Part shown: positions 4,101 through 22,400 of the stretch, in pieces
Layout of the letters: each line of letters begins with the position of its first letter
How positions within the stretch are numbered: position 1 is the first letter of the stretch
Source of the DNA: a virus
Reading direction: 5' to 3' (one strand)
IMG/VR virus record: IMGVR_UViG_3300044911_003339
Location: 32,001-96,000 of that record
DNA: 64,000 bases
Notes under the pieces: model-generated
What the model saw: the letters and a program-made list of their open reading frames with translations, nothing else
Database searches by the model: none
What the model was told of the DNA's origin: nothing
Made by a program: the position numbers and the translations under genes

Positions 4101-5255
4101 GTGGCGCTCATCCGCAACGGCGTGTCGCTCAACTCGAATCCGATGCGCGTCGGGGGAGGACCGAACGTCAACTCGATCAACCGACCCATCGGGCCGGGCG
4201 CGCAGCGTGGCTTCTACGCAGGCGAGGGCACGGTCGTCAGCGGAGCATCGATCGCCGACACGGCGGCGTTCCCCAACGGCTACGAGGGCGGGACAGCGTG
4301 GCTTCTCGCGCCCCGAGGCGGCGGTCTCTCCGCCTACACGACGTTCACGCACCCGAACGTCGTCACCGCGGCGCTCGCCTCGGGCATCAACATCGGGGCG
4401 ACGCTCACGTCAGACGGCACGATCACGACCGCTGCGATTCAGGCGCTCGCGAATCTCGTCTCTACGCTCACGGCGAACGGCGCGGTCACGACCGCGGCGA
4501 TCACGACTCTCTCGAATCTCGTCGCGTCGCTGACGGCGACGACCACAGTCACCGCTGCGATTCAGGCGCTCGCGAACCTCGCAGCAACACTCACGGCTGA
4601 CGGCTCGATCTCGAACGCAGAGCTTTCACTCGTCGTCGGGCTCGCGTGCTCGATGGTCTCCGACGGTTCGATCTCGACGGCGAACCTGAAGCTCGTCGTC
4701 GGAATCGTATGCGCCATGCTCTCCGACTGCGGCGTGAGCGGCACCCTCACCGCTCCGGCCAACCTCGCGGCGACGCTGCTCGCATCCAACAACGTGACGG
4801 GTGCGCTCTCTGCTCTGAGTAATCTGATCTGCGAGATGACCGCGAACGGATCGCTCGTCGCGTCGCTGCGAGGCACTCTGAGCATGAGCGCTGTGCTCAC
4901 GACTGCCGGAAGCTCGACGGACGCTCCCACGCCAGCGGAGATTGCTGTTGCCGTCTGGCAGTACGTCCTGAGCGGTGTGACGGCAGGCGACCGCTTGTCG
5001 GAGGTCACCGCGGCCCGGATGTCGCTGCTCTCGACCGAACTCGACCCCTCGCTGTCCGGCAGCACGGCGGCGCAGATGGTGCTCGCGCGGAAGATCCTGC
5101 ACAATCGCCTGGAAGTGGACATCGGCTCGCAACGGCTGGTGCTCTACGACGACGACAACACGACCGTGCTGAAGCGCTGGCCGCTCCAGACCACCGGAGG
5201 CGAGCCGGTCACCACCTCGCCTGGTGTGCAGACGAAGAGAAGGGCTCCGACGTGA
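4101..5255 (+). CDS. Ala/Thr-rich repeat virion protein (fibre/appendage-like)
   Basis: About eight 20-21 aa repeats; C-terminal NRLEVD..LVLYDDD.TTVL..W.L motif typical of phage virion proteins. Confidence 0.65.
   Translation: MALIRNGVSLNSNPMRVGGGPNVNSINRPIGPGAQRGFYAGEGTVVSGASIADTAAFPNGYEGGTAWLLAPRGGGLSAYTTFTHPNVVTAALASGINIGATLTSDGTITTAAIQALANLVSTLTANGAVTTAAITTLSNLVASLTATTTVTAAIQALANLAATLTADGSISNAELSLVVGLACSMVSDGSISTANLKLVVGIVCAMLSDCGVSGTLTAPANLAATLLASNNVTGALSALSNLICEMTANGSLVASLRGTLSMSAVLTTAGSSTDAPTPAEIAVAVWQYVLSGVTAGDRLSEVTAARMSLLSTELDPSLSGSTAAQMVLARKILHNRLEVDIGSQRLVLYDDDNTTVLKRWPLQTTGGEPVTTSPGVQTKRRAPT
4398..4915 (+). repeat. Degenerate ~60-63 nt coding tandem repeat
   Basis: Protein repeats such as ATLTSDGTITTAAIQALANLV; exact 26-nt repeat accgctgcgattcaggcgctcgcgaa at 4428 and 4551. 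Confidence 0.7.
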
Positions 5256-7552
5256 AGATTCGCAAGTCGATCACACAGGGGCTCAACGAGGTCGGCGGGC
5301 AGGTCTCTCAGGGCCTCAACGTCGGTGGCGCGGTCCCCGCCTCAGAACCGGCAAGCACGGGCTTCGTGCTGATCCAGGAACCGGCGCGGCACCCGAGTCG
5401 CCGGTTCCCGCACATGCAGACCGAGAGGCTTCGTCGCCTCGCGGAAGCAGGACTCGGCGAGACGCAGCGCTTCGTGCGCAGAATCTCGCAGACGGAGGAA
5501 GAGGGCACGCGCCCCGCTCCTCACGTCCTCTCGCCCGAGGACGTGACGCGACAACTGGGAGTGCCGCTCGACCTCGAACAGAAGATTCACGCCATCGTGC
5601 GTGAATCGATTCCTCCGAGCGACGGATCGAAGATCGTGGACGTGAAGCGCTTCGGCAGCGCTCGAACGCGACTCCTCGACTTCATGCGGAGACAGAAGGT
5701 CACCCTCGACTCGGACCTTCGCGCAGAGATCATGCGTCGCGCCCTTCACTACTGGCGAGCAAACTTCCGCGTCGATTACGGACGCACCCCGGAGATGCGC
5801 ATGGGCAAGGCACTGGTGATCCCCAAGCAGCGCTTCGTGCTCATGAAGGGCCCGAAGGTAGAAGCCCCTGGCGCGAGCCCGACGGGTCGAGTCTCGATGC
5901 ACCCGATGCACGTGGACGCGTCGTCGGGGAAGGTCGGCCACAAGTACATCGCGCGCAAGCCCGATGGGCATGGCGGCTGGCTCTACAAGTACCCCGGCGA
6001 CACCGAGTTCCGCCCCGGCGCGGGAATCGAAGAGGGGCACACGCAGGCCCCCGAGGGCGCGCACCTCGGCGTGCACGAGAGCGGATTCCGCCCGACGCAC
6101 GAGCGCCACGCGGACGGTGGGCACACGTTCCACTTCGGAGAGGACGTGTCCGCCCACATCCCGGCCAACGCGGACCGCGAGCACCACCGGAAGGAGCACG
6201 CGAAGCACGGGGCCGCCTACAAGAAGGCGATGGCCGAGGGCAACGAGGAGAAGGCCAAGGGGCACCTGCGCGCCTACCAGATGCACGCCGAGGCCCACAA
6301 CCGCGCCCTCTCGGCCGAGCGCAAGGCCGCGAAGACGGGCATGGCTCCGCCAGGGCACGGGCTGCCTCCTGACGTGGGCAGTCAGGTCGAGGGCAAGCCC
6401 CAGAAGCAGCCCCCCGGAGCAGGCGGTCCTGCTACGATGCCCGGTGCCCCTGGCGGCTCTCCAGGCCAGCGACCTCCTACGCAGGGCGGGATGGCCGCTG
6501 GGGGCGCTCCGATGACTCCTGGGGGCGCAGGGGAGCCCCCGCAGGGCTTCGCAGCCCGCACGCCTCCCGGAGCCGACGTGGGGCAGTACCGCCAGCATCT
6601 CCAGGCCGCGAGCGACGCGATGTCGAACCTCGCGGCGACGCATGCGCACGTCGCGGACCTCGACGCCCGCATCAAGACCGTGAAGGCGGATCGCTCGCTG
6701 CACCCGCGCATGAAGAAGCAACTCGCGGCGCAGCTACAGGCGGAGAAGGCGCAGGCGGAGCTTGACCGATTCCAGCACGAGGACGCGCACGACGCGGCCA
6801 TGGAGCAACTGAAGTCGATTCACTCCGCGCTCCGAAAGGAGAAGCTGAAGCACCACCCGATCGTGAAGATGATCGACGGGCTGCTGAAGCTCATGCAGAG
6901 CTTCGCGTCGAAGATGGGCCACGGGCCGAACCCGAAGGGCGAAGAGGGCGCGAGCCCCAACGAGCGCCAGCGGGTCGTGGACTTCTACAGCGCCCGTTCC
7001 GACGCAGCCGGCGAGGCGAAGGCCGGCGCAGGCGGCGAGGAGTTCAAGCCACGCGAGCGTACGCTCTCGCTGCGCGCTCCCACCGACACGGGCGGAGCCA
7101 AGCCCGTCGGAGAGAATCCCGCTGCGAGCCCCGCGACCCTCGCACAGAAGCGCGAGGCTCCGAAGACGGCGGCGAGCGACAGCACGTGGGACGCGGACCT
7201 CGCGAGCGCGAAGGCGAAGCGTGACGAGACCGAGCGTGCTGCGAGTCAGGCTGGCGACACGTGGCGGAATCGCCAGATCGCGCAGGGCAAGGACACGCAG
7301 GGCATGCTGCGTGAGCAGCTTCGCGCTCCCACGGAGACCTCGGAGGCCAAGACGGCAGCGCCGAAGCGCCCGACTGCGGCGGGCACGGTCGCGCCGCGGA
7401 AGCGGGCCGCGAAGTCGGCGACCGAGGCGGACCTCATCGATCTCCGCAAGGCGCTCGCGCTCGCGCACGAGGGCCTGCGTGAGACCGCGCTGACCGACAA
7501 GCGAATCGTCTTCACGCCCCCGACCGAGCGCCGCGTGCGCCTGGAGTGGTGA
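5252..7552 (+). CDS. Large low-complexity putative internal head protein with HKY tag
   Basis: Overlapping GTGA start; GHKYIARKPDGHGGWLYKYP motif, His-rich helix, Pro/Gly linker, coiled coil, K|[AGS] sites. Confidence 0.7.
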   Translation: MKIRKSITQGLNEVGGQVSQGLNVGGAVPASEPASTGFVLIQEPARHPSRRFPHMQTERLRRLAEAGLGETQRFVRRISQTEEEGTRPAPHVLSPEDVTRQLGVPLDLEQKIHAIVRESIPPSDGSKIVDVKRFGSARTRLLDFMRRQKVTLDSDLRAEIMRRALHYWRANFRVDYGRTPEMRMGKALVIPKQRFVLMKGPKVEAPGASPTGRVSMHPMHVDASSGKVGHKYIARKPDGHGGWLYKYPGDTEFRPGAGIEEGHTQAPEGAHLGVHESGFRPTHERHADGGHTFHFGEDVSAHIPANADREHHRKEHAKHGAAYKKAMAEGNEEKAKGHLRAYQMHAEAHNRALSAERKAAKTGMAPPGHGLPPDVGSQVEGKPQKQPPGAGGPATMPGAPGGSPGQRPPTQGGMAAGGAPMTPGGAGEPPQGFAARTPPGADVGQYRQHLQAASDAMSNLAATHAHVADLDARIKTVKADRSLHPRMKKQLAAQLQAEKAQAELDRFQHEDAHDAAMEQLKSIHSALRKEKLKHHPIVKMIDGLLKLMQSFASKMGHGPNPKGEEGASPNERQRVVDFYSARSDAAGEAKAGAGGEEFKPRERTLSLRAPTDTGGAKPVGENPAASPATLAQKREAPKTAASDSTWDADLASAKAKRDETERAASQAGDTWRNRQIAQGKDTQGMLREQLRAPTETSEAKTAAPKRPTAAGTVAPRKRAAKSATEADLIDLRKALALAHEGLRETALTDKRIVFTPPTERRVRLEW

Positions 7553-8262
7553 TGTCCAGCAAGGCCGAAGCCGTCGTCGTCGCGAAGGCGCTCGCGCTCA
7601 TGGGCAAGCGAGGTCGCCGAGGTCCCGTCGAGGACGAGGTGGCTCCGCGTCGCGCGAGCACGAAGCTCCATCGAGGCCGGAAGATGCCGGCCGAGCCTGC
7701 GTCTCGCTGGCCTCACAGCGCGAAGCGGCCGAAGGCCGTCGTCCAGCCCGACCTCACAGAGCCCGGTGTGCAAGGTCGCCCGCCGAAGTCGAGCGAGACG
7801 CCCGTCTACGGCAAGGGCTCGACCATCGGACCCGGACCAGGCGGCGGAGGGATTCTCGGCAAGCGGAAGGGGAAGCGCCCCTACGCACGCTCGCCGAAGT
7901 ACACGACGCTCGACATGATGGCGGCCGATCTCCACGGCAAGGTCGTCGGCCCGATGGGGTCGAAGGAGAACTCAGGCACCAGCTACGGGCCCGGCCCTGG
8001 ATGGAACTCGAACCCGATGCCGGACTTCGGCGACATGTTCCCCGGCCGAGACCCGAAGGGGTCGGAACGCGAGGAGACGAAGGCGCAAGCGAATCGCATG
8101 GTCTCGAATCGCAAGCGCAACGAGGGTACGATGGGGTTTCACGGAACCCCTCCCAAGCCGACGCTTCGGGCTGAAGCGAAGGAGCAGTTCTTCATCACCG
8201 CGACGCGCGAGAGCGAGAACAAGCCTCGCCTCTACGCGCGCGTCGGCTACAAGAGGTCGTGA
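7552..8262 (+). CDS. Basic, probably disordered hypothetical protein
   Basis: TGATG coupling at both ends; VVAK|A site near N terminus; Lys/Arg/Pro-rich. Confidence 0.65.
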   Translation: MSSKAEAVVVAKALALMGKRGRRGPVEDEVAPRRASTKLHRGRKMPAEPASRWPHSAKRPKAVVQPDLTEPGVQGRPPKSSETPVYGKGSTIGPGPGGGGILGKRKGKRPYARSPKYTTLDMMAADLHGKVVGPMGSKENSGTSYGPGPGWNSNPMPDFGDMFPGRDPKGSEREETKAQANRMVSNRKRNEGTMGFHGTPPKPTLRAEAKEQFFITATRESENKPRLYARVGYKRS

Positions 8263-11200
8263 TGCCGCTCGGTCACAAGTACATCTCGCGCAAGCGCAAC
8301 GCTTCTGGCGGTTACGATTACGTCTACCCGCATCCCACGACGGGTGAACGCGTTCGCATCCGCACTTCCCTGCGTCTCGACGGCGAGCATCGCTCGGTCA
8401 CGGCCGAGAATCCCGAAGACCGCACGATGTCGGCGACAGCCTGGTCGCGTCGCGGGGCAGACGGCAAGACGCTGACCGAGGCTCACTCTGCGCTCGACGA
8501 GGCCGAAGCTCCGATTCATCGCGCCGCGGTCGCTGACACGATGAACCGGAAGAAGACGATCACGCGCCTCTCGCACAAGACCTCCAGCTACGGCGAGAAG
8601 CACGGCATCGGCCCTGACGACAAGGGAGGCTCTGCGGTTCGTGACGCCGCACGCAAGGCGGCGTGGGCTGCTTCCGAGCCGCCCACTGGAGGCCACACCC
8701 GCGAGACGCACGAGAAGGCCGCGAAGGCGCACGAACACGCCGCGAAGCTCGAACGCGAGGCCGGGCGACGTGATGGCTACGTGAGGCACGCTTCGATGGC
8801 CGAGCAGCATCGCAACGCGATGGAGCGGCTGGGCTCCTCAGAATCCGATTCACCAGTCTATCCGTTCTGGGTCCGCAACCAGAGGACCGGGGTCTCCGAG
8901 GGATTCAAGACGCGTGAGCAGGCCGACACGCACCTGCGGCACTACGTGAAGAATCCCGAGGACCACATCATCGAGCAGGTCGGCGCGAAGGGTCCGAAGG
9001 TCAACGTGGACCACCTGCTCTCCGGCAACATGGGAATCCCGCGCATCGAGATGCCGCAGATCCGTTCCTTCAAGCTGCCCGAGTTCCTCTCCAAGCTGGA
9101 GAAGAAGGGCATCAAGGCGACGAAGGGTGAGCGCGCAGTCGGCTCGCTGAAGCCGACGCAGAACGAGATCCACGGCGAGCGCGTCCAGGAGATCATCGAA
9201 GACCCGAAGGAGCGAGAGAATCTCGCGAAGCAGATCATCATCTCGAACGACGGCTTCATCCTCGATGGGCACCATCGCTGGGCAGCGCTCACGACGATCG
9301 ACCCGAAGGCGAAGATCAAGACGCTCCATGTGGACATGCCGATGCGCTCTCTGCTGAAGGAGGCGCACGCGTTCGAGGGTGTGGAGTACCAGAAGAGCGA
9401 ACAGGAGACGGACATGGGCGGCGACCTCATCGACAACCTCGAACTGCTCGCGAAGGGCGACACGCTCGTCGGCTTCTACTCGCCCGGTGTCGCTCGCGGC
9501 GGCAAGTACTACCGCCGAGTCCCGACCGGGAATCCGAAGCACCCGTGGAGGTACTTCTACACGGAGGCGGAGTACAAGGACGCGATGAAGGACGCTTCGC
9601 ACGTCGGCGGGACCGAGGCGAAGCGGGCGCGCGTGAAGAAGCGCGTCTTCGTGAGCGAGAAGGAGGCGCGCGAGAAGTACGGCCTTCCTGGTACGACGAA
9701 GGAGCTTCACGCGCCGGACGGGAACTACCCGCCCGAGCGGAAGAAGCTCCACGAGGAGATCATCTCGCACTTCCTCGACGGCAAGGGGAAGCCCCCCGCA
9801 GGCAAGAAGCCCGTCGCGCTGCTCACCGTCGGAGGTCCGGCCGCGGGCAAGTCCACGCTGCTGAAGCACCTCGGCGAGAACCTCGACGATTACGTGATGA
9901 TCGCCGCCGACGACGTGAAGGAGAAGCTCCCCGAGTTCCAGCGCGCGCTCAACCTCGGGAATCGCAAGGTGACGCAGCCCGACGGCTCGGTCACGAGCGT
10001 GCCAGTCACGGCGAGCCACTCGGGCTGGATGGCGCACGACGAGAGCACGGACATCTCCGACGAACTGGAGAAGCGCGTCATCGCCTCGGGCAAGTCGGCC
10101 ATCTTCGACGGCACGGGCAAGAACGTCCCGAAGATGCTCGCGAAGATCGCCGCGCTGAAGAAGGCCGGCTACCACGTGCGCGTGGTGATGCCGCACGTGC
10201 CGATGGGCGAAGCGATCAAGCGGCTGCACTCGCGCTCGGAGGACACGGGCCGCACGCTGCCCGTCGATGCGGCGATCGACATGCACCGGAAGATTCCGGG
10301 CAACTTCGAAGCCATCGCTCGCGCTGCCGACGACTTCTCGCTCTTCAAGTCGGGCAACCCGCCGAAGCCGATCTGGACGGGCGGCGCGGGTCAGGAGGAC
10401 AAGATCCACGACCACGAGGAGATGTCGAAGTTCAACCTCGCGCGAGGACTGCACCAGGACATCGGCGCAGAGGAGAAGGCGGGCGGAATCTACAAGAAGA
10501 GCGAGGACCCCGAAGCGCTCGACGCGACCGGCCCGAAGCAGCCGCACCACACCATGAACGAGTTCATGGAGATCCTCTCGCGCTGGAACGGCTCCATCGA
10601 CAACCACGAGGACGGCCGGAGCAAGGTGCCGCACGACGGCGACATCGAGGACGGCCTCGCGGACGTGATTCCCGACGCGGAGGACGAGACCGTCAAGCAC
10701 CTGAAGCGTCGTGCTCCGAAGGCCAAGAAGGCGAAGGGCGCTCGCTTCATGGAGCGAGGCGAGGTCGAGAAGAGCGGCGACCTCATCGACTCGCTGGAAG
10801 CTCTCGTGAAGGGCGGCGAGGCTGCGGGGCACAAGCTGGTGCACTCGGAGAATCCGCGTGCGCACGGAGGAGACGTGACGAAGAGCGACCGCTCGCGTCG
10901 CCTGGAGGAGAAGATCATGAGCGACGAGATGCAGAAGGGCCTCTACCAGTTCCAAGGTCTCGGCTCGGGCGAGGTCCCGGACCAGTACCTCTACGATTAC
11001 CTCTGCGCGTTCGTCGAAGAGGCGTACGAGCACGAGCGGCAGGAGAAGGTGCACCAGAACACGCTCGTGCCGCCGTCGAGCACGGGGGCGAGCATCGAGG
11101 ACGTGTGGGCGACCGCCGTCTTCAACGAACTCGTCAGCATGATGGGCTCGAACGCGAACCTGAAGCGCGCGGCGGTGAAGTACAACGTCACGAAGGACGT

Positions 11201-11624
11201 GATCGCGCACATCCTCCGCAGCAAGGGCCTCGTGCGCCCCTTCTCCGACGCCGGCACGTGGACGAGCGACTACGACTCGATGCGCGCGATGGACGGCGAG
11301 GGCGTCACGCGCCCGCTCGTGCTCTCCGAGTCGGCCCGCGCGCAGTACCGCGACATCGTGCCGGATCCGTTCGGGCACAACGTCGGAGTCGCGCTCGCGA
11401 AGGCCGAGCCCGCGCCGACCGCGCCGCTCTTCATCGACGATTCCCACGACCCGCACGGGAATCTCGCGAAGGCCGAGCGTGCTCGCCTCGCACTCGTGGA
11501 CTACCGGCAGAACGCCGAGTGGCGGCCGAACGTCTCGCCGACGTGTATGATCCACGGCAGCGCGGATCTCACGAAGTCGATGAATCTCTCGAACCCGCAC
11601 GCTCGCTGCACCTGCCCGCGCTGA
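8262..11624 (+). CDS. Polyvalent protein: HKY tag + ParB/Srx-like domain + zeta-toxin-like P-loop kinase + C-terminal domain
   Basis: ParB-like LKPTQ..IIIS.DGFILDGHHRW (~9130-9330); zeta-like GGPAAGKST, I.ADDVK, HDES, IFDGTG, R...TGR.LP (~9800-10350); C-terminal CxxH..CxC. Confidence 0.8.
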   Translation: MPLGHKYISRKRNASGGYDYVYPHPTTGERVRIRTSLRLDGEHRSVTAENPEDRTMSATAWSRRGADGKTLTEAHSALDEAEAPIHRAAVADTMNRKKTITRLSHKTSSYGEKHGIGPDDKGGSAVRDAARKAAWAASEPPTGGHTRETHEKAAKAHEHAAKLEREAGRRDGYVRHASMAEQHRNAMERLGSSESDSPVYPFWVRNQRTGVSEGFKTREQADTHLRHYVKNPEDHIIEQVGAKGPKVNVDHLLSGNMGIPRIEMPQIRSFKLPEFLSKLEKKGIKATKGERAVGSLKPTQNEIHGERVQEIIEDPKERENLAKQIIISNDGFILDGHHRWAALTTIDPKAKIKTLHVDMPMRSLLKEAHAFEGVEYQKSEQETDMGGDLIDNLELLAKGDTLVGFYSPGVARGGKYYRRVPTGNPKHPWRYFYTEAEYKDAMKDASHVGGTEAKRARVKKRVFVSEKEAREKYGLPGTTKELHAPDGNYPPERKKLHEEIISHFLDGKGKPPAGKKPVALLTVGGPAAGKSTLLKHLGENLDDYVMIAADDVKEKLPEFQRALNLGNRKVTQPDGSVTSVPVTASHSGWMAHDESTDISDELEKRVIASGKSAIFDGTGKNVPKMLAKIAALKKAGYHVRVVMPHVPMGEAIKRLHSRSEDTGRTLPVDAAIDMHRKIPGNFEAIARAADDFSLFKSGNPPKPIWTGGAGQEDKIHDHEEMSKFNLARGLHQDIGAEEKAGGIYKKSEDPEALDATGPKQPHHTMNEFMEILSRWNGSIDNHEDGRSKVPHDGDIEDGLADVIPDAEDETVKHLKRRAPKAKKAKGARFMERGEVEKSGDLIDSLEALVKGGEAAGHKLVHSENPRAHGGDVTKSDRSRRLEEKIMSDEMQKGLYQFQGLGSGEVPDQYLYDYLCAFVEEAYEHERQEKVHQNTLVPPSSTGASIEDVWATAVFNELVSMMGSNANLKRAAVKYNVTKDVIAHILRSKGLVRPFSDAGTWTSDYDSMRAMDGEGVTRPLVLSESARAQYRDIVPDPFGHNVGVALAKAEPAPTAPLFIDDSHDPHGNLAKAERARLALVDYRQNAEWRPNVSPTCMIHGSADLTKSMNLSNPHARCTCPR

Positions 11625-11660
11625 ACGCGCAGGAGTCGCCCCGAGGCGTAGAGGAGACGC

Positions 11661-13460
11661 ATGGGCCTGTTCGACAAGTTCAAGGATGGATTCGAAGCGC
11701 TCGCGAAGGCGCTCGGCGAATCCGAGGAAGACGGCGAGGACATCCCCTTCGACAAGATGCGGGATGCCCTCGTGCGTTCAGGTCTCGCGGAACCGACGGA
11801 GGAGAAGCCGCGCGCGCTCTTCCACGATCCCTACGCGGTCACGGACTGGGGAGGCTGGCGAGAGCGACCGTCGTCGATGACGTACGAGACGCTTCGCATG
11901 ATGAGCGTGAAGAACACGGTCATCGCCTCCATCATCCAGATCCGGTGTAATCAGGTCGCGCAGTTCGGTCGGCCTCAGCAGGGCCCGTACGACAAGGGCT
12001 ACCGGATCATCCCGCGCGACAGGCGGGACAAGAAGAAGGTGCTCACGCCCGCGGAGAAGAAGCAGGCCGCGGAGATCGAGCGGATGCTGGAGACGACGGG
12101 CTTCCTCCTGCCCGGCGAGAAGCCCGCGGATCGCGACAGCTTCCGCACCTTCTTGCGGAAGGCCACGCGCGACATCCTCACCTACGACCAGTGGGCGTTC
12201 GAGAAGATTCGCGACCGCAAGGGTCGCGTCTCGCGCTTCATCGCGCTCCCCTCAGAGAGCATCCGGCCGGCGAGCGCGGACATCGAGCACATGGACGTGA
12301 AGTCCCTGCGCGAGCGCGTCTCGCACGTCCAGGTCTACGAGGACACGCCGATCGCCGAGTTCAGCCCCGAGGACATCGCGTGGTGCGTGATGAATCCTCG
12401 CTCCGACCTGCGCGCGAACGGCTTCGGCTTCTCGTACATCGAGATGCTCGTCTCGCTCGTGACCGCGTGGCTCTACGGGTTCGAGTACAACCAGCGATTC
12501 TTCATGCAGGGCAGCGCCATCAAGGGCATCCTGAACGTGAAGGGCGCGATTCCCGATCGTCAGCTTCGTGCGTTCCGACGCATGTGGTATTCGATGGTCT
12601 CGGGCGTGAGCAACGCGTGGAAGACGCCGATCCTCAACAGCGAGGATCTCCAGTGGGTCCCGCTCCACGTGAACAACCGCGAGATGGAGTACGGGCAGTG
12701 GATGGACTGGCTCACGAAGCTCACGTGCGCCGTGTTCGGAATCGATCCCGTCGAGATCAACTTCATCTTCGGCAACAGCGGGCAGTCGTCGTCGCTGAAC
12801 CAGTCGCGCCCGAACGCGGCGGAGGTCCAGGAGTCGAAGGACAAGGGCCTCGTGCCTCTCATGGACCACATCGCCGACAACCTGAACATGCACATCATCT
12901 GGGAACTCGCACCAGATTTCGAGTTCGCCTTCACGGGCTTCGACGCGCAGGCCGAGGAGAAGGAGCAGGAGGGTCGCATCAAGGCGGTCACGAACTACAA
13001 GATGATCGACGAGGTGCGCGCGCTCTACGAAGACGATCCGCTGCCGAACGGCATGGGCCAACTGATTCTGAATCCGACCTACATGCAGTGGGCGATGCAG
13101 AAGGAGCAGGCCGCGATGGGCGGACCTCCCGGTGGAGGTGAGGGCGACATGGGCATGGGCGATCCCGACGCGCTGCCCTCCACAGCACCGGGCAACGACG
13201 AGGAAGACCTCGCAGGGCCTCCCCAGAAGGGCCCGCCCAAGCCCGGCCAGCCCCCGAAGGGTCCGCAGGGCCCGCAACCCCCGAAGGGCGCGCAGAAGCC
13301 CCCAGGGAAGCCCTTCGGCTCCCCCGGTGAGGAAGCGCTCCAGGCGTCAGCCTTCGTCGAGCGCACGGCGCGTGGCATCCTCCGCAAGTCCCGCGTACAC
13401 ACGCGCACCGAAGGCGGGCGGGAAATCATCGACATCGAACTGCCGGAGGATCCGACATGA
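11661..13460 (+). CDS. Portal protein
   Basis: FLRKATRDILTYDQ.AFE, NPRSD..GFG.S.IE, YN.RFF.QG..KGIL, G..NAWK.PI, DP.EINF motifs of SPO1-like portals; Pro-rich tail. Confidence 0.92.
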   Translation: MGLFDKFKDGFEALAKALGESEEDGEDIPFDKMRDALVRSGLAEPTEEKPRALFHDPYAVTDWGGWRERPSSMTYETLRMMSVKNTVIASIIQIRCNQVAQFGRPQQGPYDKGYRIIPRDRRDKKKVLTPAEKKQAAEIERMLETTGFLLPGEKPADRDSFRTFLRKATRDILTYDQWAFEKIRDRKGRVSRFIALPSESIRPASADIEHMDVKSLRERVSHVQVYEDTPIAEFSPEDIAWCVMNPRSDLRANGFGFSYIEMLVSLVTAWLYGFEYNQRFFMQGSAIKGILNVKGAIPDRQLRAFRRMWYSMVSGVSNAWKTPILNSEDLQWVPLHVNNREMEYGQWMDWLTKLTCAVFGIDPVEINFIFGNSGQSSSLNQSRPNAAEVQESKDKGLVPLMDHIADNLNMHIIWELAPDFEFAFTGFDAQAEEKEQEGRIKAVTNYKMIDEVRALYEDDPLPNGMGQLILNPTYMQWAMQKEQAAMGGPPGGGEGDMGMGDPDALPSTAPGNDEEDLAGPPQKGPPKPGQPPKGPQGPQPPKGAQKPPGKPFGSPGEEALQASAFVERTARGILRKSRVHTRTEGGREIIDIELPEDPT

Positions 13461-14221
13461 GCGTCCGCACCTTCCTCGACATGAGCTTCCAGATCGGACT
13501 GGAGAACAGTCTCGACGATTCGCTGTTCGAGCGCACGAACTCGCAGCTTCTCGACACGCTTGACCACGCAACCGGAGGTGTCGTGTCGCTCGCGGCGCTT
13601 CAGACGAACGTCACGCTGCCCTTCGGCGACGTGACCGAGGCGCGAATCCTCTACATCGAGGCCGAGGACGGCGACGTGCGCTTCACGCTCGGCGGCGGGC
13701 TCGCGACCTCGGGGCGTATCGACGCCGTGGGCGCGGCCTACCCGACGGGCTTCGTCGGCGCAGAGACGCTCGACTTCGAAGTGGACGCCACGGCGATCGC
13801 CGTGACCTTCACGTCGGGAGACCAGACGATCACGCAGGTCATCAACCGTATCAACGCGGCGTGCGCGCTCGCGGGATTCGCCACGCCGATCGCGAAGGTG
13901 AGCGCGGGGCAGCTTCGCCTCGAAAGCCCGACGACGGGCACGTCTTCGTCGATCGAGATCATCGGAGGCACAGGCCGCGCGACGCTCGGCCTCCCCGCTC
14001 CCTCCACCATCAACTCAGGTGCGAACTCGACGCCCGGCACGAGCCCCGTGGAGCTTCGTCGTCCCGCGGACCCCGCGGGCGCGAGCGCCGCGGCAGGCGT
14101 GAAGGCGATCTTCTTCGGCACCGTGAAGACGAGCAGCATCGTCATGGAGAATCTCTCCGACAACGTGACGAAGGTGCGCTGGGCGATCGCGGGAGACCTC
14201 ACGACCGACGACGCGTGCTGA
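13457..14221 (+). CDS. Putative virion structural protein
   Basis: ATGA coupling; beta-rich with a sheath-insert-like motif (V..RINAA..A....GQLRLES.TTG.SSSIEI). Confidence 0.6.
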   Translation: MSVRTFLDMSFQIGLENSLDDSLFERTNSQLLDTLDHATGGVVSLAALQTNVTLPFGDVTEARILYIEAEDGDVRFTLGGGLATSGRIDAVGAAYPTGFVGAETLDFEVDATAIAVTFTSGDQTITQVINRINAACALAGFATPIAKVSAGQLRLESPTTGTSSSIEIIGGTGRATLGLPAPSTINSGANSTPGTSPVELRRPADPAGASAAAGVKAIFFGTVKTSSIVMENLSDNVTKVRWAIAGDLTTDDAC

Positions 14222-14231
14222 CGGAGGTCCC

Positions 14232-16046
14232 GTGGCTCGCGTACGCATCGAAGCCCCCGAGGGACTGGACCGACTGACGCTCGCGCAGATCGTCGTCGGT
14301 CCTCACCTGCTTCTGAAGTCCCAGCACGTCCGGCATGCCGGCGAGCGGACGTTCTCGCGCTACGTCGCGCTCCAGGAGTTGAACGAGCACGTCGTGAAGT
14401 CGTTCGAGGAGACGCTGAAGCAAGCGCTGAAGCGCGCGGACGATTACATGCAGCGCACGGTGCTGCTCGCCGACGTGGGGCTGCGGAAGGCGGACGAGCA
14501 CCTCCCCGCGTTCCCTCCGCTCTTCACGCCCGAGCAGATGGAGGCGGTGCGCCGCATCCTCACCGATCACGTGCACGGCTTCATCGCGACGACCGTGGAT
14601 CCGAATCTTCTCTCGCAGCACGAGGTCGCGCGCCTGATCGCCGAGGGAGTGATTCCCGCGTCGATGAGCTACGTGTTCCAGGCCGAGCCGGGGCAGGAGG
14701 CTCCTCTCGCCGAGGACTGGATCGGAGCGGCCTACACCTACGGCGCGATGCTCGGCTCGATGCGAGAGGGCGATGACGCCGCCTACGTGAAGTCGCTGTC
14801 GTGGCCGACGTTCGCCAAGAAGCAGAAGGCACAGCCGCTCGTGCTGACCCCGCACGAGCAGGCCGCGCTCGACGTGGCGAAGCACAGCGCGGGCATCCAC
14901 TGCCGCGGGCTCGGGAACGAAGTCGCCGACGACTTCTCGACGATCGCCATCGACACGGACCGCGCGCTGCGGAAGCGATTCGAGCACGAGATCCAGACCT
15001 CGACCGAGGCGAACATCGCGCGCCGCGACGCGTGGCGGAAGCTCGCGAGCGACCTCGGGCACAAGACCGGGGACTGGGCGCGAGGCTTCGGGCGCATCGC
15101 CGCGACCGAGAAGCAGCGCGCGTTCCAGGAGGGATTCTCCACGACGCTGAAGAAGCGCGAGAAGAAGCGCCCCGAGGACGTGCGCGTCGCCAAGCTCCCG
15201 GCACCCGACGCGTGCCCCGACTGCGTGCGCCTGCACCTCACCGCAGGTCCCGGTTCCAAGCCGCGCATCTTCTCGCTCGCAGACCTGGAGGCCAACGGCT
15301 CGAACATCGGCGTGAAGCGCGCCTCGTGGAAGGCCGTCGTCGGGCCGGTGCATCCGTGGTGCGGGTGCGAACTCGTGCACGTGCCCGACGGCTGGGATTT
15401 CGACGACGAGAACAAGCTCATGCCCACGAAGCTCGAACGCAGCGCACGCCTGGAGGCGGACCTGCGGAAGAGCGCGGACAAGCAGCGACACCTGACCTAC
15501 AGGGAATCGGTTCCCGAGAAGGGCATCGTCGTTCGCGTCGGCGACCCGCTCACGCGAGCGGAGATCGACAAGGTGATCGCGCGCACGCCCGAAGTGCTGT
15601 TCGACCACAAGGTCGGCGTCACGCTCATCACGACCGATCTGCCGACGGTGCAGAACGTGCTCGACCCGCACGATCTCGCCTACTGGACGGGCAACGAGAT
15701 TCGCCTCTCGCAGACTCTCGCGCCCGAGCGCGTGAACCTCGTGCTCATGCACGAGTTCGGTCACGCGCTGAACGTGTTCCTCTACCAGAAGTTCGACGAG
15801 AACACGGACCGCGTGCGCGCGTGGCACGACGCCCTGTTCGCCATCGCGAAGGTCGAGGGCTTCGTCTCCGATTACGCGACCCGCGAGCCGATCGAGAACG
15901 CAGCCGAGGTGACCCGGCTCTACCTCTACGACCGGCCGAAGCTCATGCGGGAGTTCCCGCGGCAGTTCGCCTTCTGCCAGAAGGACTACCGCGACATCCT
16001 CCCGCCCTGGAAGTGGAGGAACGATGGCGATTCTAAAGATCGCTGA
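14232..16046 (+). CDS. MuF-like (SPP1 gp7-like) minor head protein fused to a C-terminal zincin metallopeptidase
   Basis: RIAATE..A, DACPDC, GPVHPWCGC.L (MuF Cys/His motifs); HEFGH..VSDYA...E..AE (zincin). Confidence 0.82.
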   Translation: MARVRIEAPEGLDRLTLAQIVVGPHLLLKSQHVRHAGERTFSRYVALQELNEHVVKSFEETLKQALKRADDYMQRTVLLADVGLRKADEHLPAFPPLFTPEQMEAVRRILTDHVHGFIATTVDPNLLSQHEVARLIAEGVIPASMSYVFQAEPGQEAPLAEDWIGAAYTYGAMLGSMREGDDAAYVKSLSWPTFAKKQKAQPLVLTPHEQAALDVAKHSAGIHCRGLGNEVADDFSTIAIDTDRALRKRFEHEIQTSTEANIARRDAWRKLASDLGHKTGDWARGFGRIAATEKQRAFQEGFSTTLKKREKKRPEDVRVAKLPAPDACPDCVRLHLTAGPGSKPRIFSLADLEANGSNIGVKRASWKAVVGPVHPWCGCELVHVPDGWDFDDENKLMPTKLERSARLEADLRKSADKQRHLTYRESVPEKGIVVRVGDPLTRAEIDKVIARTPEVLFDHKVGVTLITTDLPTVQNVLDPHDLAYWTGNEIRLSQTLAPERVNLVLMHEFGHALNVFLYQKFDENTDRVRAWHDALFAIAKVEGFVSDYATREPIENAAEVTRLYLYDRPKLMREFPRQFAFCQKDYRDILPPWKWRNDGDSKDR

Positions 16047-19000
16047 TCTCGTGAAGAGCGGAGGTCCGTACATCGGGCCGAAGGGCGGTGTGTGGGCCGA
16101 CCCGCAGCACACGGTGCCGTGGAAATCGGATCATGAGGACACCACCTCTCACTTGTTCCACTCCACGCCCGCGTACGCGATGAGCCGGATCAAGCGGGAA
16201 GGTCTTGCTCCGCGCAAGGGCGCAGGTCTCTTCCAGCACGGCGGCTACGATCTGCACTCGCAAGGCAAGGTGTTCCTCTCGAACAACCTCTACGCGGCGA
16301 AGCAGTGGCACAGCAAGGTCGAGGCTCAACTCGAACACCACCACGATAATCCGAAGCACCACGTTGCAGTCATGCTTCGTGTGAAGCCTCGGGAGACGCA
16401 TCTCGACGATGTTGGAGACCGCGATGTGAGCGGCTCTCGCTTCGTGCGCGACGTTGTGCCTGCAACCGACATCGAGTTCTTCCACGAAGGTACGAAGCGC
16501 TGGAAGCCGGTGAAGGATTACAAGCACGGCACGCACGGTATCCCGGACGACCACTACGAAGCTCACGCGCCGCGCGACGAAGAGGCAGACGCCGCCGAGA
16601 AGGCCGCAGCGAAAGAGGCACGACGCGCGAAGCGCGAAGCCGAGGAGCAGGCGACTCGCGCGCGGCTCGCGGCGCTCCAGGAGGAGCGCGCGAAGCGCGA
16701 GGCTGCGGAAGCGCAGGTTCACTTCAGGGATTCTGACGAAGGCAAGGCAATCCTCACGCGCTGGAAGGGCCTCTCCCCCGAAGAGCGTCAGGCGAAGGCG
16801 AAGCGCATCCTCGACGCGCCCCGCCCTTTCCCCGGCGCTCCCTCGATGCTGTCGCTCGGGCAGCGAGGCGAGGTGTGGCGCGAAGCTCTCGGAGTCGATG
16901 AGAAAGGGAATCTCGTGAAGTCGCGATTCATCATCAAGGCAGGCCCCTCAGGTGGGGGTTGGATGCCGATCCCCGGAGGCCACCACGGAGGGCTTCGGCG
17001 ACGACACGGCGCGGGCTGGGAGTACTGGTACCCGAACGGAGCCCCGCACTTCGTGCTCCGCGAGCAGAAGCACCCCGAGGAGCAGCACGGGCACGAGCAG
17101 ATCGACCCGGAGCCCTCGCACTGGGCCCTCGTCACGCCCGGCCCCGGCCTGCCCCCGGTCGGGTGGACCGCGGGCGGCGTGAACCCGCACGACACGAAGA
17201 CCCCCGTGAAGGAGGCCGGTGTCTCGGGGAAGCTCTACCGCATCAAGAATCCGCACATCCGAGAAGGCTGGGCGCTGCTCACCGACGTGCGCTCGGGCGA
17301 GGACCACATGGTCCAGCACGACCGCGTGATGCCCGTTCGGTGGCTTTCGCCCGAAGAGAGGGCTCTCCAGGGCTCTACAGAGCCTCAGGAGCCGTTTTCG
17401 ACCTGGAAGCCAGGGGTGGGTCCCTCCAAGCGCCCGAGCGGCGGAGGGGCGTCTGAGGGCAAGCGGATGCCCTCCTTCCCCGACTCCCGAGCGCTGCCCG
17501 GAACCGAGACGCACAAGCTGGAGAACGGCGCGTACGTCTGGCGCAAGGTCACGCGGTACGAAGCCGACGAGGACGGCACCACTCGCAAGGTCGAGCGGCT
17601 CGCGCCTGGAATCCCCGACTCCGACAAGATCGCGCTCATCGCAGAGTACGAGGGCCTCGTCGCCAAGACGGCGAAGCGCGTGCGCAGCGCGTTCGGGCTC
17701 AGCGCCCGCCTCTCCACCGGCCCCGGTCAGCGCACGGTGGACGACACGCTCGTCGAGCTTCGGCAGGCCGGCGTGGAGGGTCTGCTCCACGCCATCGACA
17801 GCTATCGCCCCGTGGGCCCGTTTGCAGCGCACGCCCAGCAGTACGTTCGCGATTACGCGCGTCTCCACGCCGCACGGGAGTTCGCGGGAGGCATCGCGAT
17901 CCCGCGGCGGCATGCGCGCCTGCTCTCGTCCTACATCGCGGCCCGCGCAGAGGCCGCGCGCGTGAGCGGAAGCCACGACCCGAGCCCCGAGGTGGTCGCG
18001 GAGTTCTGGAAGCCGAAGAAGCGGGACCTGCACTCGGGCCTCTCGCCCGAGGAAGGCGGAGGAACGATTCCTCTCGCTGGCTACACGCTGAAGCGCAAGA
18101 CGACCTCGACCGATCCCGAGACGGGCAAGAAGAAGACGACCGTCGAGGGCGAGGACGTGGTGCAGCAGCCCGGCCGCCTGGAGTGGGCGCAGCAGTTCCA
18201 CGCGTTCCTCGTCGGGCAGGGAGGCATGGCGGACATCGACGAGCAGGCCGCGCTGTTCCCCGGCCTCGGCGTCGGCACGGGGCTCGGCGCGGACGAGCGC
18301 ATCGCCGTGCGCGAGGCGATGATGCGCGCGCTCCCTCCCGACGGGACGATCGTCACGGTCCAGGCGGGCCCGCAGGCCCAGTTCCGCGGCGAGACCTGGA
18401 AGGCGATCGACCTCGCCCTCGGGCTCTCGTCGGGCGATCCGCTGCCTCTCGACGAAGTGGTCCGTCGCGTGCCCGTCGAGGGATCGCGCGGAGGTGAGTG
18501 GAAGCGTCTCGGAAGCTCGCGAGCGCGCGCCGCGATCGAGGCGCTCATCCGCGACGGCCTGAACACGGTCGCGCGTCACCTGCGAGGCGACGAGGACCGA
18601 GCAGCGTCGCTCGCGCAGGCCCTCGTGACGAAGCTCGTGCCGACCGAGGCTCCGAAGGAGCGGCTCCCCACGATGCGAGAGCGAATCCGCGCTGCGATGG
18701 CCCGCATCACCCCGGCCGAGGTGCAGCGCTGGCGCGAGGAGACGCGAGCGCGCTACCCCGAGCGGCCCGACATCGGCCGACGGATGTCTCGTGTCACCGA
18801 TTCCGAAGCGAAGCGCCGCATCGTCGAGGAGCGCATCGCCGCAGCCCCGCTCACGCCCGAGATGCACGAGGCGATGCTCCGCACGATGACGGCGATTCGC
18901 CAGGGCGTCTCGGCCTCGGGCCAGAACGTCTTCGGCGTCGTGGACCCGAAGGGGTCGAAGAAGAGCCTGCGCGTGCACTCGCTCTCCAAGGCCGGCGACC

Positions 19001-19137
19001 ACGGCGCGTCCGATTCGGCTATGGTCGGGGAGTGGCTCCGGTTCCCGGAGCTTTCGCGACTTCGCTGGGCGAGCGAAGATCCGCTCGTGCACGCTCCGAC
19101 GATCGCTCGCGCACGGTTCGATTCCATCATCGGGTGA
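16024..19137 (+). CDS. Polyvalent protein: ADP-ribosyltransferase/Tpt1-like domain + sigma70-like regions 2 and 4
   Basis: LFHST....I..EGL.P, VFLS, MLRV, VP..DI (ART fold); LV...AKR, EL.QAG.EGLL.AI.SY....F..HA..YVR, I.IP (sigma region 2); LGL....L.L.EV (region 4-like). Confidence 0.7.
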   Translation: MAILKIADLVKSGGPYIGPKGGVWADPQHTVPWKSDHEDTTSHLFHSTPAYAMSRIKREGLAPRKGAGLFQHGGYDLHSQGKVFLSNNLYAAKQWHSKVEAQLEHHHDNPKHHVAVMLRVKPRETHLDDVGDRDVSGSRFVRDVVPATDIEFFHEGTKRWKPVKDYKHGTHGIPDDHYEAHAPRDEEADAAEKAAAKEARRAKREAEEQATRARLAALQEERAKREAAEAQVHFRDSDEGKAILTRWKGLSPEERQAKAKRILDAPRPFPGAPSMLSLGQRGEVWREALGVDEKGNLVKSRFIIKAGPSGGGWMPIPGGHHGGLRRRHGAGWEYWYPNGAPHFVLREQKHPEEQHGHEQIDPEPSHWALVTPGPGLPPVGWTAGGVNPHDTKTPVKEAGVSGKLYRIKNPHIREGWALLTDVRSGEDHMVQHDRVMPVRWLSPEERALQGSTEPQEPFSTWKPGVGPSKRPSGGGASEGKRMPSFPDSRALPGTETHKLENGAYVWRKVTRYEADEDGTTRKVERLAPGIPDSDKIALIAEYEGLVAKTAKRVRSAFGLSARLSTGPGQRTVDDTLVELRQAGVEGLLHAIDSYRPVGPFAAHAQQYVRDYARLHAAREFAGGIAIPRRHARLLSSYIAARAEAARVSGSHDPSPEVVAEFWKPKKRDLHSGLSPEEGGGTIPLAGYTLKRKTTSTDPETGKKKTTVEGEDVVQQPGRLEWAQQFHAFLVGQGGMADIDEQAALFPGLGVGTGLGADERIAVREAMMRALPPDGTIVTVQAGPQAQFRGETWKAIDLALGLSSGDPLPLDEVVRRVPVEGSRGGEWKRLGSSRARAAIEALIRDGLNTVARHLRGDEDRAASLAQALVTKLVPTEAPKERLPTMRERIRAAMARITPAEVQRWREETRARYPERPDIGRRMSRVTDSEAKRRIVEERIAAAPLTPEMHEAMLRTMTAIRQGVSASGQNVFGVVDPKGSKKSLRVHSLSKAGDHGASDSAMVGEWLRFPELSRLRWASEDPLVHAPTIARARFDSIIG

Positions 19138-19145
19138 GGTTCTCC

Positions 19146-19490
19146 ATGAAGAGGTTCTCCATCGACCCCGCCACGCTGCCGACCACATGGCGGGTCGGGC
19201 GGCGTGTCGGCAATAGCGGGCTGGAGCACGCCTTCGATCTCCGCCGTCGGGATGACGGCGGAATCTCCATCTCGAACGTCGAGCACCCGCTCACGGAGAC
19301 CGAGCGCACCATGCTGCTCTCGCACTTCGGCAAGGCGCGCGTCGTGACGATCGGAGGCGAGGCCGACAACGGCGCGCTCGTGACGACGATGCAGCGCCAC
19401 GAGCCGGGGGAGATCGAGAACTTCGTGGAGGCGGTCTACTCGCTGCCCTCACCCTTCATGGTGATGCCGAACGCTCGGAGGGAGACATGA
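19146..19490 (+). CDS. Hypothetical protein (114 aa)
   Basis: SD GAGGT before ATG 19146; ATGA-coupled to the next gene. Confidence 0.65.
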   Translation: MKRFSIDPATLPTTWRVGRRVGNSGLEHAFDLRRRDDGGISISNVEHPLTETERTMLLSHFGKARVVTIGGEADNGALVTTMQRHEPGEIENFVEAVYSLPSPFMVMPNARRET

Positions 19491-22400
19491 GCCGGTTCGT
19501 GATTCCTGCGCTCCGCGCCGCACTGCCGGACGCCCTGGCGAAGTCGTTCCAGCGAGGCCCGCTCGCGCAGCACAAGTACCTGAAGCGAGAGCCCTACTTC
19601 GTCGGGGGCAAGCTGCGCTGGAGGTACTGGTACGCGAGCGACGAGCTTCGCAAGCAGGGCATGGTCGAGCACGACCCCGCGGGCGAGCACGAGCACCACC
19701 TGCTCGCGAACATCGCGGACATCTACGAGCACTTCAAGTCCGTGATCCGCTCGACTGCTGCGACCCCGACGACGGCGATCGAGGGAATCTTCCAGGCCGC
19801 GGTCGATGACCCGAAGGCGCAGCGCGTGCCACAGGTCGCGATGTCTCCGGCGTTCCAGGCGCAGCACGTTCAGCCGTTCATCGACGCAGAGGCGAAGGGA
19901 GCACCTCCCGAGGCGAGCCCGATCGTGCGCGTGCACGACGCGCTGGAGATGGTGCCCGACTACCTCCTGAAGCTCGTGATGGGCGGGACGAAGAACACGA
20001 AGCACCCCGGCTACAAGGGGCTCGGCCCGTACCCCGGTCTCTCCGCGCTCGTGATGAATCGCCAGGAGGACGAGGGAGCGGATTACGCGAACACCGCAGG
20101 TTGGGCGCATCCGAAGACGGGCGAGCTTCACCTGCTTGGCGGCGGCTCGGGCAAGCACGGCAGCGATTCGAGCTACTCCTTCCTCGACGGCGGCGACCCT
20201 GCCACGGCTCCCACGCCGACGGACTTCAACGACGCGAAGGTGCATCTCGAAAAGGTCGTCTGGCACGAGCTTGGGCACCACGTGCACTTCACGCTGGAGA
20301 CCGAGCAGCCGGACGTGATGGATTCGTGGAGGGACCTCTCGACGGGTCCGGGTCCGAAGCCGACGGCCTACGCGCACACGGCATGGTGGGAGGACTTCGC
20401 AGAATCCTTCTCGGGCTGCTTCGCGCTCCCGAAGGTGATGGCGATGCGCTGCCCCGAGCGATACGACTGGATGCGACAGCACGTCCTGAAGTCGCTGCCC
20501 GAGAGGTCCGCGCTCCTGAAGATGTCGGACGAGGAACTCGCGTGGTGGAACAAGAAGAAGACCACGCCGCCCGGCAAGCTGCTGATGCACCTGAAGTCGA
20601 ACGCGCCCGCGCGTCGCTTCGGTGCCTACTACAGCGACAAGGACCAGTTCTTCACGGTCGGCAAGGGAGGGCGCACGGTCTACCTGCGCTTCGGTCCGTC
20701 CGAGCCTGATCAGGAGGACGGCTGGACGCAGGTCCCCTCGACCATCGACCCGGAGACCGGGCTGCCGGTCTACGACGCCGCCTACGGTCCGCGCTTCAAG
20801 GTGCAGGGCAACCTGAAGGAGATGTACGACGAGCGCGGGAATCCGCTCGACGACTTCCAGGCGTTCCTCTACCTCGGACAAGACGACCCCGAGGTGCAGA
20901 AGTTCGTCGCCGACACGATGGAGAAGTACGTCGCGACGTTGCCTCCGAACTCGCCGCAGCCGACGGAGTACGACGCGGTGCAGTGGCTCGCCGCGAAGGG
21001 CGGCGACGAGGCGAAGGCTCTGGAGACGCGTCTGCTCTCGTACAAGATGTACACGTCGCTCGGCTACAAGCGGGAGTCGGAGAAGATTTCCGCGAAGGAA
21101 GCCCACACGACGGAGAAGGAGCGCAAGCGAGTCGAGAAGGAGCGCGCGAAGGGCGGCACGGGCTACCTCGATCGCCACGACTGGGTTCCGGTCGAGATTC
21201 CTCGCTCGGAGTTCGTTCAGAAGTCGGGCACCTTCAAGTTCGACAACGTGCGACCCGCGGAGTACCAGCCGTGGCAGGCCCGCGAGTGGGATCCCGTCAC
21301 GAAGACCTCGCGTGTGAAGACCGTCTACGACCCTGCGGCCGGCAAGGTGGTGCCCGTGCGCACGGCGACGGTCTACGAGCAGGAGAACCCCGACGGCACG
21401 ACGTTCCGTGTGACGGTCGCGGAGGGCGAGCCCTTCTCGATCGGACAGACCATCCTCGCGCCGGTCAGCGTGAAGCTGCCCGACGGTCGCATCTCGCAGG
21501 ACTGGCAGCCCTACAAGCTGTCCGTCGAAGACGGCGAGATGACCGTCACGAACCTCGCGAAGAAGTTCCGCGTCGATCCTGAGGCGCTCCTTCGTCAGAA
21601 TCACCGCTACATGCGCGGGCAGATCACGGACCCGATGCTCGCCGCGCTCCTCAACCCGAGCGGCGAGGTGATTCGCGATCAGTTCGATCTCATGCGCCTC
21701 ATGAAGCTCGCGGCCGAGCAGCCCACGCCGCCGACCGCGTGGGTCAGCGTCCGGGGCAAGACGGGCTCGATCGCTCACTTCAAGGTGAGCTTCGACGGCT
21801 CGGGCCCGCCGCGCGTCGAGGGTCGTCAGTGGGCCGCGAAGCTCGGGAAGGACCCGACCGAACCCATCCGCCTCGATCAGATTCTCGGGAAGGACGACGA
21901 ACTCATCGGCGTCGAGACCGTGCGCGAGCGGAAGGCGAAGGAGGTCAAGATCAAGCCGGGCGGCCTGGTGTGGGTCACCGTCAAGAATCACCTCGGCGAC
22001 GCGAAGCGCGTGATGGCGCGCTACATCGAGAAGAAGTCGTTCGAGGAGAAGGGCAAGAAGAAGAACGCCCACGTCGTCCAGGTGCTCCCCGGTCAGGGCA
22101 CGGGTCTGCCGAAGGACCGCGTGATCGTCACGCGCGTGAACAAGAGCGACGAGAGCCAGATCCCCGGCAAGCCGGAGATTCGTCGGCGCTTCGTCGAGCC
22201 GATGCAGAAGGACGTGCTGCTCTACGCCGACGAGGTGCGGGTCGGCTCGGGCGACCGAGACACGAGCGGCGTGATCAAGATCCTCCCGCCGAAGAACGGC
22301 TCGGTCACGAAGGCGCAACTCGCTGCGATTCCTGGCGTGCGCATCATCGGACTGGAGAAGGCACGGAACAAGAAGGGCGGAGCAGTCACGGAGGAGCTTC

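Follow-up and report, generated by a model that had tools for sequence, protein, structure and literature searches.

The stretch of DNA analysed here, hereafter the window, comprises 64,000 nucleotides (bases 32001-96000) of the 105,161-bp IMG/VR virus record IMGVR_UViG_3300044911_003339, which is rated complete by CheckV, and has a GC content of 66%. Large genes on either side of its portal gene carry a cassette of approximately 30 residues in which a short motif, [LIVMF]-x-K-[AGS], is followed after 2-9 residues by a hairpin of the form GHKY[ILV]xRxPxGxGG[WY]xYxY, an unconserved linker and then a cargo domain. We propose that this cassette marks the modules of virion-carried effector ("polyvalent") proteins in phages possessing a head of the SPO1/Herelleviridae type, a model which, taken in full and judged from sequence, we consider to have a probability of approximately one half. 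That the cassette exists and is widespread, and is not private to this phage, is nearly certain. A preliminary description of this DNA had already proposed a hairpin tag heading each cargo module behind a putative processing site; these features stand, as does their tie to SPO1-type head genes, with the correction that the cassette belongs to a whole lineage of phages rather than to this genome.

The proposed arrangement consists of a putative prohead-protease cut site, [LIVMF]-x-K↓[AGS] (the arrow marks the predicted scissile bond), which often ends a short amphipathic leader or spacer, then the basic and aromatic beta-hairpin, a linker predicted to be disordered, and the cargo domain. Giant proteins constructed in this manner would be built into the prohead, where the prohead protease (encoded at 26690-27538 in the window) would cut them at each junction, such that each enzyme module would be released carrying a hairpin close to, or at, the N terminus thus created. 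This hairpin would ultimately serve as a common handle that addresses the module to the head, or holds it there, until the module exits with the DNA. The parts of this model merit different degrees of confidence. The carriers are probably head cargo proteins and the upstream motif is most likely a cut site of the head protease, while the role of the hairpin as an addressing handle is plausible, if short of probable; any shared addressing function must nonetheless lie in the hairpin, because it is the only element common to all units.

Anatomy and predicted fold of the cassette

The anatomy of the cassette was derived from 208 proteins, which together hold 340 copies. Positions -6 to +17 relative to the histidine have a high information content, and here the copies read G-x-[EKQ]-[RA]-[AP]-G-H-K-Y-[ILV]-[RS]-R-x-P-[DG]-G-x-G-[GK]-[WY]-x-Y-x-Y; beyond +17 conservation is at background, and the linker there is rich in A, G, K and E. 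The hairpin itself spans 18-22 residues, is both basic and aromatic, and has eight positions that are almost invariant across phages of 29-73% GC. The median position of the first copy in a protein is residue 30, the median spacing between successive copies is 292 residues, and at least 40 residues (median 298) follow the last copy in 204 of the 208 carriers. Because of this trailing sequence the unit must be considered a header and never a tail, in agreement with the earlier suggestion that the copies head otherwise unrelated cargo modules.

When run with an alignment of the copies, AlphaFold2 predicts for the canonical copy a beta-hairpin and nothing else (strands 29-32 and 38-41, pLDDT approximately 87), and for the window copy in the gene at 19487 strands 33-39 and 42-48 with pLDDT 92-93. 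The flanks are of low confidence in both cases, as would be expected of disordered sequence, and the models therefore favor the small beta-hairpin that had been envisaged from the letters.

No known domain could be assigned to the hairpin, as none of the Pfam, PHROG or PDB matches covers it. Over the copies, Pfam at E≤10 returned only DUF3892 (E 0.09, one copy), PHROGs returned nothing for the hairpin below E 0.03, and the PDB gave only a chance match of 15 residues. Matches to DUF5661 and LPD1 in the carriers lie elsewhere in the chains and do not overlap the hairpins, and a likeness of the 'PDG...Y.Y' turn to YD/RHS repeats was rejected, the Pfam scan of the copies having given no RHS match. 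A literature search with the literal motif strings found only unrelated papers.

Header copies in the window

The five HKY-type copies that had been listed for the window are all in frame, in four large genes of the plus strand. The header features of the window are the following.

5936..5995, + strand: canonical HKY hairpin header (gene 5252-7552, aa 229-248)
8271..8330, + strand: HKY hairpin header, 4 residues from the start and preceding a ParB-like module (gene 8259-11624, aa 5-24)
9444..9560, + strand: internal junction, a spacer with LLAK↓G (K399) at its end, then a hairpin variant with a long loop (aa 414-434, the 9498 copy) preceding a zeta-toxin-like kinase module (gene 8259-11624)
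10770..10844, + strand: junction remnant, EK↓S, a DLID-type spacer and LVK↓G, then only G-H-K of the hairpin
16054..16122, + strand: sister ('class 2') header GGP[YF]IGP[RK]GGxWAD..HT[IV]xW, immediately following LVK↓S, at the start of gene 16024-19137
16930..17034, + strand: IIK↓A site, then the hairpin variant 'GW..IPGG..GGLRRR..GWEYWYP' (gene 16024-19137; copy at ~16987, aa 322-337)
19487..19633, + strand: 19-residue leader ending LAK↓S, then a longer-loop hairpin (aa 28-49, the 19568 copy), heading the zincin-SNF2 protein 19487-26122

A strict regular expression (an HKY-type strand, 3-12 residues, then aromatic-x-aromatic-x-aromatic), applied to all six frames, yielded 4 matches in the window, which are also the only 4 in the whole 105,161-bp record and lie always in tagged genes, and 0 matches in 100 shuffled genomes. 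The motif thus exceeds shuffled controls, and an origin by chance or low complexity is ruled out by the shuffles together with conservation beyond what the pattern demanded. A profile was also built from 64 copies, all of them from other phages. Applied to this genome, it matched only at the sites given in the preliminary description and nowhere else, with 44.3 bits at 5891 (a near-identical contig being among the seeds), 23.5 at 8265, 12.1 at 19538, 5.8 at 9480, 5.7 at 16993 and 3.9 at 10788.

The variant copies belong to recognizable subtypes. In the 9498 copy the histidine is replaced by glycine and the loop has 9 residues, and two relatives (L005 and L007) retain HKY with the same loop. 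The subtype of the 16987 copy, 'GW..IPGG..GG[YFL]R[KR]R..GW.YWYP', recurs after a cut-site motif in 5 other proteins (P0075, P0107, P0152, L058, L086), and some proteins with this subtype carry canonical copies as well. The claim that most copies lie shortly after K↓[SAG] holds in the window for the copies at 19568 (lysine at -10), 9498 (-15), 16987 (-17) and 16063 and for the remnant at 10827 (-7); it fails at 8271, where the copy begins 4 residues from the start codon, and at 5936, where there is no site within 18 residues.

Two sites that had been taken for a degenerate and a variant copy of the hairpin proved to be of another nature. The GHKLVH near 10830 is better described as a deletion scar at 10827, on the basis of an alignment with the relative L002, whose portal is 99% identical. 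This relative has a complete hairpin and tagged module at the GHK site and a second, extra tagged module just downstream, both of which are absent in the window; conversely, the window has an 84-residue His/Ala-rich insert without counterpart in L002. The GPYIGPKGG at 16063 is a distinct and conserved sister header that the HKY profile does not match and for which Pfam likewise gave no match. We observe 19 copies of it in 13 of the 208 HKY carriers, where chance would give 0.02, and in 16 of these 19 cases the copy stands directly after a cut-site motif. It also occurs in L005, L007, L048 and L086, often in the same polyproteins as the HKY hairpin and in the same place after L-x-K↓[AS].

Distribution and carrier proteins

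Relatives retrieved through the portal gene carry the cassette as well. The ParB/zeta gene of the phage whose portal is 99% identical holds two further copies, and in a 104-kb relative, with a portal of 64% identity, four genes contain at least 10 copies of a sharper consensus; in relatives with 35-39% portal identity the regions flanking the portal showed none. IMG/VR was scanned with a DNA pattern back-translated from HKYxxR-x7-WxYxY, which gave 100 matches in 86 stretches. Sixteen of these fall in open reading frames of <100 residues and look like chance; the other ~84 lie in open reading frames of up to 2566 residues on contigs of 29-73% GC, and share features outside the pattern: a glycine at -1, a proline at +7, another glycine at +11 and L..K[AGS] upstream. 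In a search of 1.84 billion cluster representatives, 656 proteins matched the profile at E≤0.001 and 63 of these at E≤1e-10; as many as five stretches of a single protein were matched, and the number of copies in one protein reaches 6.

The cargo is diverse. Across 36 long carriers we find 28 Pfam families, including InPase (9), ddrB-ParB (9), SNF2 (4), LPD1 (4) and ART-PolyVal (3), and further zeta toxin, RadC, PAPS reductase, SAM lyase, GNAT and DarA_C; a word-indexed search added carriers with RelA_SpoT, 2H phosphoesterase and a glutamine deamidase fold. Most carrier genes are located 0-7 kb from a portal gene.

Against a cultured-phage collection, tblastn of single copies returned only the Thermus Lalka phages and weak matches. 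Thermus phage Lalka8 (PQ109075.1; L103 in our set) is a cultured myovirus of Thermus thermophilus HB8 whose gene 4 (9001-10284), encoding a 427-residue hypothetical protein, has the cassette at its start and adjoins DarB-like and Ulx-like genes. The tagged gene lies 3 kb from a portal gene whose product is 27% identical to that of the window (E 8e-36). The DarB-like protein of Lalka8 itself has no hairpin. The authors of the Lalka phages propose packaging of the Dar homologues.

Gene order and association with one head lineage

In the window the portal gene (11661) has tagged genes on either side, and the protease and capsid genes come after them, in the following order.

2043-5255, + strand: three unannotated genes
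5252-7552, + strand: gene, 766 aa, no Pfam match; carries the HKY hairpin header
7546-8262, + strand: gene
8259-11624, + strand: gene, 1121 aa, ParB-like motif and Zeta_toxin (E 5e-20)
11661-13460, + strand: SPO1-type portal gene (PF04860; 36-37% identity to SPO1-group portals), with tagged cargo genes on both sides
13457-14221, + strand: gene
14232-16046, + strand: MuF-like protein with HExxH tail, without the hairpin
16024-19137, + strand: gene, 1037 aa
19487-26122, + strand: zincin-SNF2 giant protein, 2211 aa, HExxH and SNF2
26690-27538, + strand: prohead protease (phrog_1028, E 4e-50; 33-40% identity to Herelleviridae prohead proteases)
27554-28588, + strand: probable scaffold protein, 344 residues, 8 cut-site motifs; function judged from position and composition
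28659-30083, + strand: major capsid protein (phrog_752), propeptide site ALRK↓A at residue 28

The preliminary description had suggested a profile scan of databases for co-occurrence with SPO1-like portal loci, and this co-occurrence is evident. A portal homologue is present in 21 of 25 carrier contigs and in 12 of the 13 complete ones, the 13th having a PF04860 match of 37.5 bits, just below the curated cut-off of 39.1 bits. By comparison, it is present in none of the 11 contigs with chance DNA-pattern matches that served as a small and mostly incomplete control. A homologue of the capsid protein is found in 20 of 22 carriers. The protease was detected in 13 of 25 carriers by protein search and in 17 of 25 after 4 more were recovered via phrog_1028.

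The MuF-like protein was considered as a specific partner of the hairpin and rejected, since it does not discriminate: a homologue occurs in 13 of 25 carriers and also in 4 of 5 relatives in whose portal-flanking loci no hairpin was found. Nor was any MuF fusion detected in the carriers.

The upstream element as a candidate prohead-protease site

The motif [LIVMF]-x-K-[AGS], with its lysine 2-16 residues before the histidine, precedes 244 of 319 copies (76%), compared with 10% when random positions in these proteins are tested and 3% downstream of the hairpin. The earlier claim that copies usually follow such a site is therefore upheld across the set, and is strongest for internal copies: the element is present at 92% of copies lying >100 residues into a protein and at 50-60% of N-terminal copies, some of which stand 2-8 residues after the initiator methionine without leader or cut site. 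At many internal junctions a second K↓S is found ~12-15 residues further upstream, so that the two sites bracket a 'DAID/DLID..L..L.K' spacer like the N-terminal leaders.

The cassette junctions share this motif with the capsid propeptide of the same phage lineage. The ALRK↓A at residue 28 of the window capsid protein aligns with DALNK↓A of the SPO1 capsid protein Gp6.1 (PDB 9vel), and in 16 of 16 alignable carrier genomes, those of low GC included, L/I-x-K-[AGS] is kept 15-25 residues (mostly ~19) before the 'LR.ESLE' anchor in the capsid propeptide. For the Staphylococcus Kayvirus capsid, the 463-residue precursor (5lii) may be compared with a 439-residue chain (9row) which, according to the alignment offsets, is without the first 24 residues; the precursor reads DVVK at residues 21-24, followed by S (VVK↓S), a trimming site that is read from the lengths of the deposited chains and not from a paper. 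Our literature search found no paper giving the cleavage specificity of Herelleviridae proteases. Within the genome analysed here, the density of the motif per 1000 residues is 6.1 in the head block and 1.3 elsewhere, and reaches 23 in the probable scaffold. It is because the element matches the site kept in the capsid propeptides of carriers, where the Kayvirus capsid appears to be trimmed, that we consider it most likely to be a prohead-protease site.

Possible functions of the hairpin

Several considerations weigh against the proposed model. Cleavage at the site, packaging of the proteins and the addressing role of the hairpin are all deduced from sequence, and no partner for the hairpin was found. 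The canonical copy at 5936 has its nearest candidate site, VLMK↓G, ~30 residues upstream, and across the copies the lysine is mostly at -4 or -9/-10, without a fixed spacing. Three complete carriers have no detectable protease of this family. The control for lineage is small and consists mostly of incomplete contigs, and the restriction to one lineage could reflect common descent instead of functional dependence. Last, one loading tag per polyprotein would be enough, and the internal copies are as well conserved as the N-terminal ones, an observation that fits a role after cutting, in ejection or in the host, at least as well as it fits loading.

It is possible, if unlikely, that the hairpin acts exclusively at that later stage, either as a leader that takes each module out through the portal and tail, or by binding DNA or a conserved host target and so keeping the enzyme at the incoming genome or the entry site. 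Besides the conservation of internal copies, eight near-invariant positions in phages of such different base composition suggest an invariant ligand such as DNA, for which a basic and aromatic hairpin would be suited, and the head-block proteins (window 5252-26122), the cargo proteins among them, are lysine-rich for a genome of 66% GC (6.4%, compared with 2.7% in the rest of the proteome). However, a universal ligand should allow the cassette to spread, and it is seen with one head lineage only, though InPase, ddrB-ParB and ART domains occur in other phages and elements (PMC5512222); the hairpin also has no similarity to a known DNA-binding family. Because the cassette is limited to one head lineage while its cargo domains occur in other phages and plasmids, we favor a virion partner over a universal ligand. 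The most specific form of our model, in which the hairpin is a portable cargo signal for SPO1-type heads that binds one conserved site inside the prohead or on the portal, is retained once the protease has freed each module, and is needed to hold and expel that module, can be put forward only tentatively; were it correct, the sister header GGPYIGPKGG..W would fit the same lock as a second key.

The tight linkage of site and hairpin also raises the prospect that the hairpin is a docking element by which the adjacent L-x-K↓[AGS] bond is offered to the prohead protease or an embedded zincin peptidase, and has no addressing role. Embedded zincin peptidases are indeed proposed to process polyvalent proteins (Iyer et al. 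2017), and the window encodes two HExxH domains (14232-16046 and 19487-26122). Yet the sites of the capsid protein, the scaffold and the portal bear the same motif without a hairpin, the distance from site to hairpin varies, there are N-terminal copies without any site, and the 25 commonest of the 28 Pfam families in the 36 carriers include no zincin family; we regard docking as improbable. Less probable still, and in our estimation very much so, is that the cassette is mainly a junction that eases the shuffling of modules, a recombination linker kept by turnover and not by any function of the peptide. The window and the phage with the 99%-identical portal do differ by whole-module insertions and deletions that start or end in the cassette, as such a linker would predict. 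The DNA identity between copies is, however, only 63-79% over at most 45 nt, which also rules out a recent DNA duplication of the copies. The peptide, by contrast, persists in phages of 29-73% GC, and selection must therefore act on the protein.

Relation to known systems

[quoted passage not shown] As in those proteins, unrelated enzyme domains (InPase, ddrB-ParB, ART-PolyVal, LPD1, SNF2) are joined in genes beside portal and head genes. In the window, at least two unrelated domains share a polypeptide in 8259-11624 (ParB-like and Zeta_toxin) and 19487-26122 (HExxH and SNF2), and the carrier genes lie mostly close to a portal gene, in keeping with the location of polyvalent proteins among portal, terminase and virion genes. 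As far as our search of it showed, neither the cassette nor processing by a prohead protease is described in the main text of that work (PMC5512222), and unlike the picture given there, the junctions observed here bear the motif of the capsid propeptide, which points to the prohead protease and not to embedded zincins.

The nearest functional precedents are the capsid targeting sequence of T4 and the packaging signal of P1 DarB. The former is a short N-terminal signal on injected head-internal proteins that is coupled to the site of the gp21 prohead protease (PMC9024508, PMC9026906), and the combination of a short tag with a prohead-protease site on candidate head cargo is common to both systems. 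The T4 signal, however, precedes the cut and is lost on maturation, whereas the conserved hairpin lies downstream (2-16 residues) and would stay on the mature cargo. Most hairpin copies are, moreover, internal, the unit being repeated inside polyproteins; the two sequences show no similarity, and the cut would occur after lysine, not after glutamate. With regard to P1, the first 30 residues of DarB, a giant anti-restriction protein, suffice as its packaging signal, and the authors found no shared consensus among Dar proteins (PMC9024508). The likeness here is that of an N-terminal tag, and the hairpin-tagged gene of Lalka8 is the one noted above as a neighbour of DarB-like and Ulx-like genes.

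The giant phages of the phiKZ/SPN3US type employ a different protease family and a different consensus site, and no conserved retained header is known to have been described for them. Encapsulin cargo-loading peptides are short and address diverse enzymes into a shell of the HK97 fold, but are usually C-terminal, extended and uncleaved; the cassette is, by contrast, a hairpin header with a cut site and has no sequence relation to them. Two reports on the phiKZ/SPN3US-like phages describe a short consensus site at which the prohead protease cleaves many head-internal proteins (PMC7411985, PMC10052503).

How head-borne proteins are selected, and how giant polyvalent proteins are dismantled, has been worked out in only a handful of model phages (T4, P1 and those like phiKZ). 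With the cassette, candidate injected effectors can be picked out by a simple rule of sequence across hundreds of uncultured phages, and the boundaries of their mature modules predicted; it also points to the prohead protease over embedded peptidases as the processing enzyme. Should the hairpin be a loading or ejection signal, it would represent a compact tag for placing chosen proteins in phage particles. If it is the portable cargo signal outlined above, a peptide of ~30 residues would suffice for the loading and delivery of arbitrary proteins by these phages. As a cultured carrier, Thermus phage Lalka8 is a tractable system in which to test the idea.

Other features of the head block

The MuF-like protein at 14232-16046 contains CPDC ... 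HPWCGC and is fused to a zincin tail with HEFGH. The C-terminal domain of the protein encoded at 8259 (aa 876-1121, window 10880-11621) is kept directly upstream of the portal in L004, L005 and L008, independently of the modules that precede it in this ParB/zeta protein, and may be a structural or anchoring part. A His/Ala-rich helical module with an 'H..AA.AH..A' periodicity recurs after hairpins, at ~6150-6330 (gene 5252, aa ~300-360) and ~8600-8850 (gene 8259, aa 115-198) of the window and within 5819-9961 of L002; its presence varies between the window and this phage of 99%-identical portal, and it has the appearance of a small mobile module. The probable scaffold at 27554-28588 has a long acidic run besides its 8 cut-site motifs. 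It is paralleled in Staphylococcus Kayvirus by a protein encoded between the protease and capsid genes (L104, 303-1259), which is likewise full of V-x-K-S.

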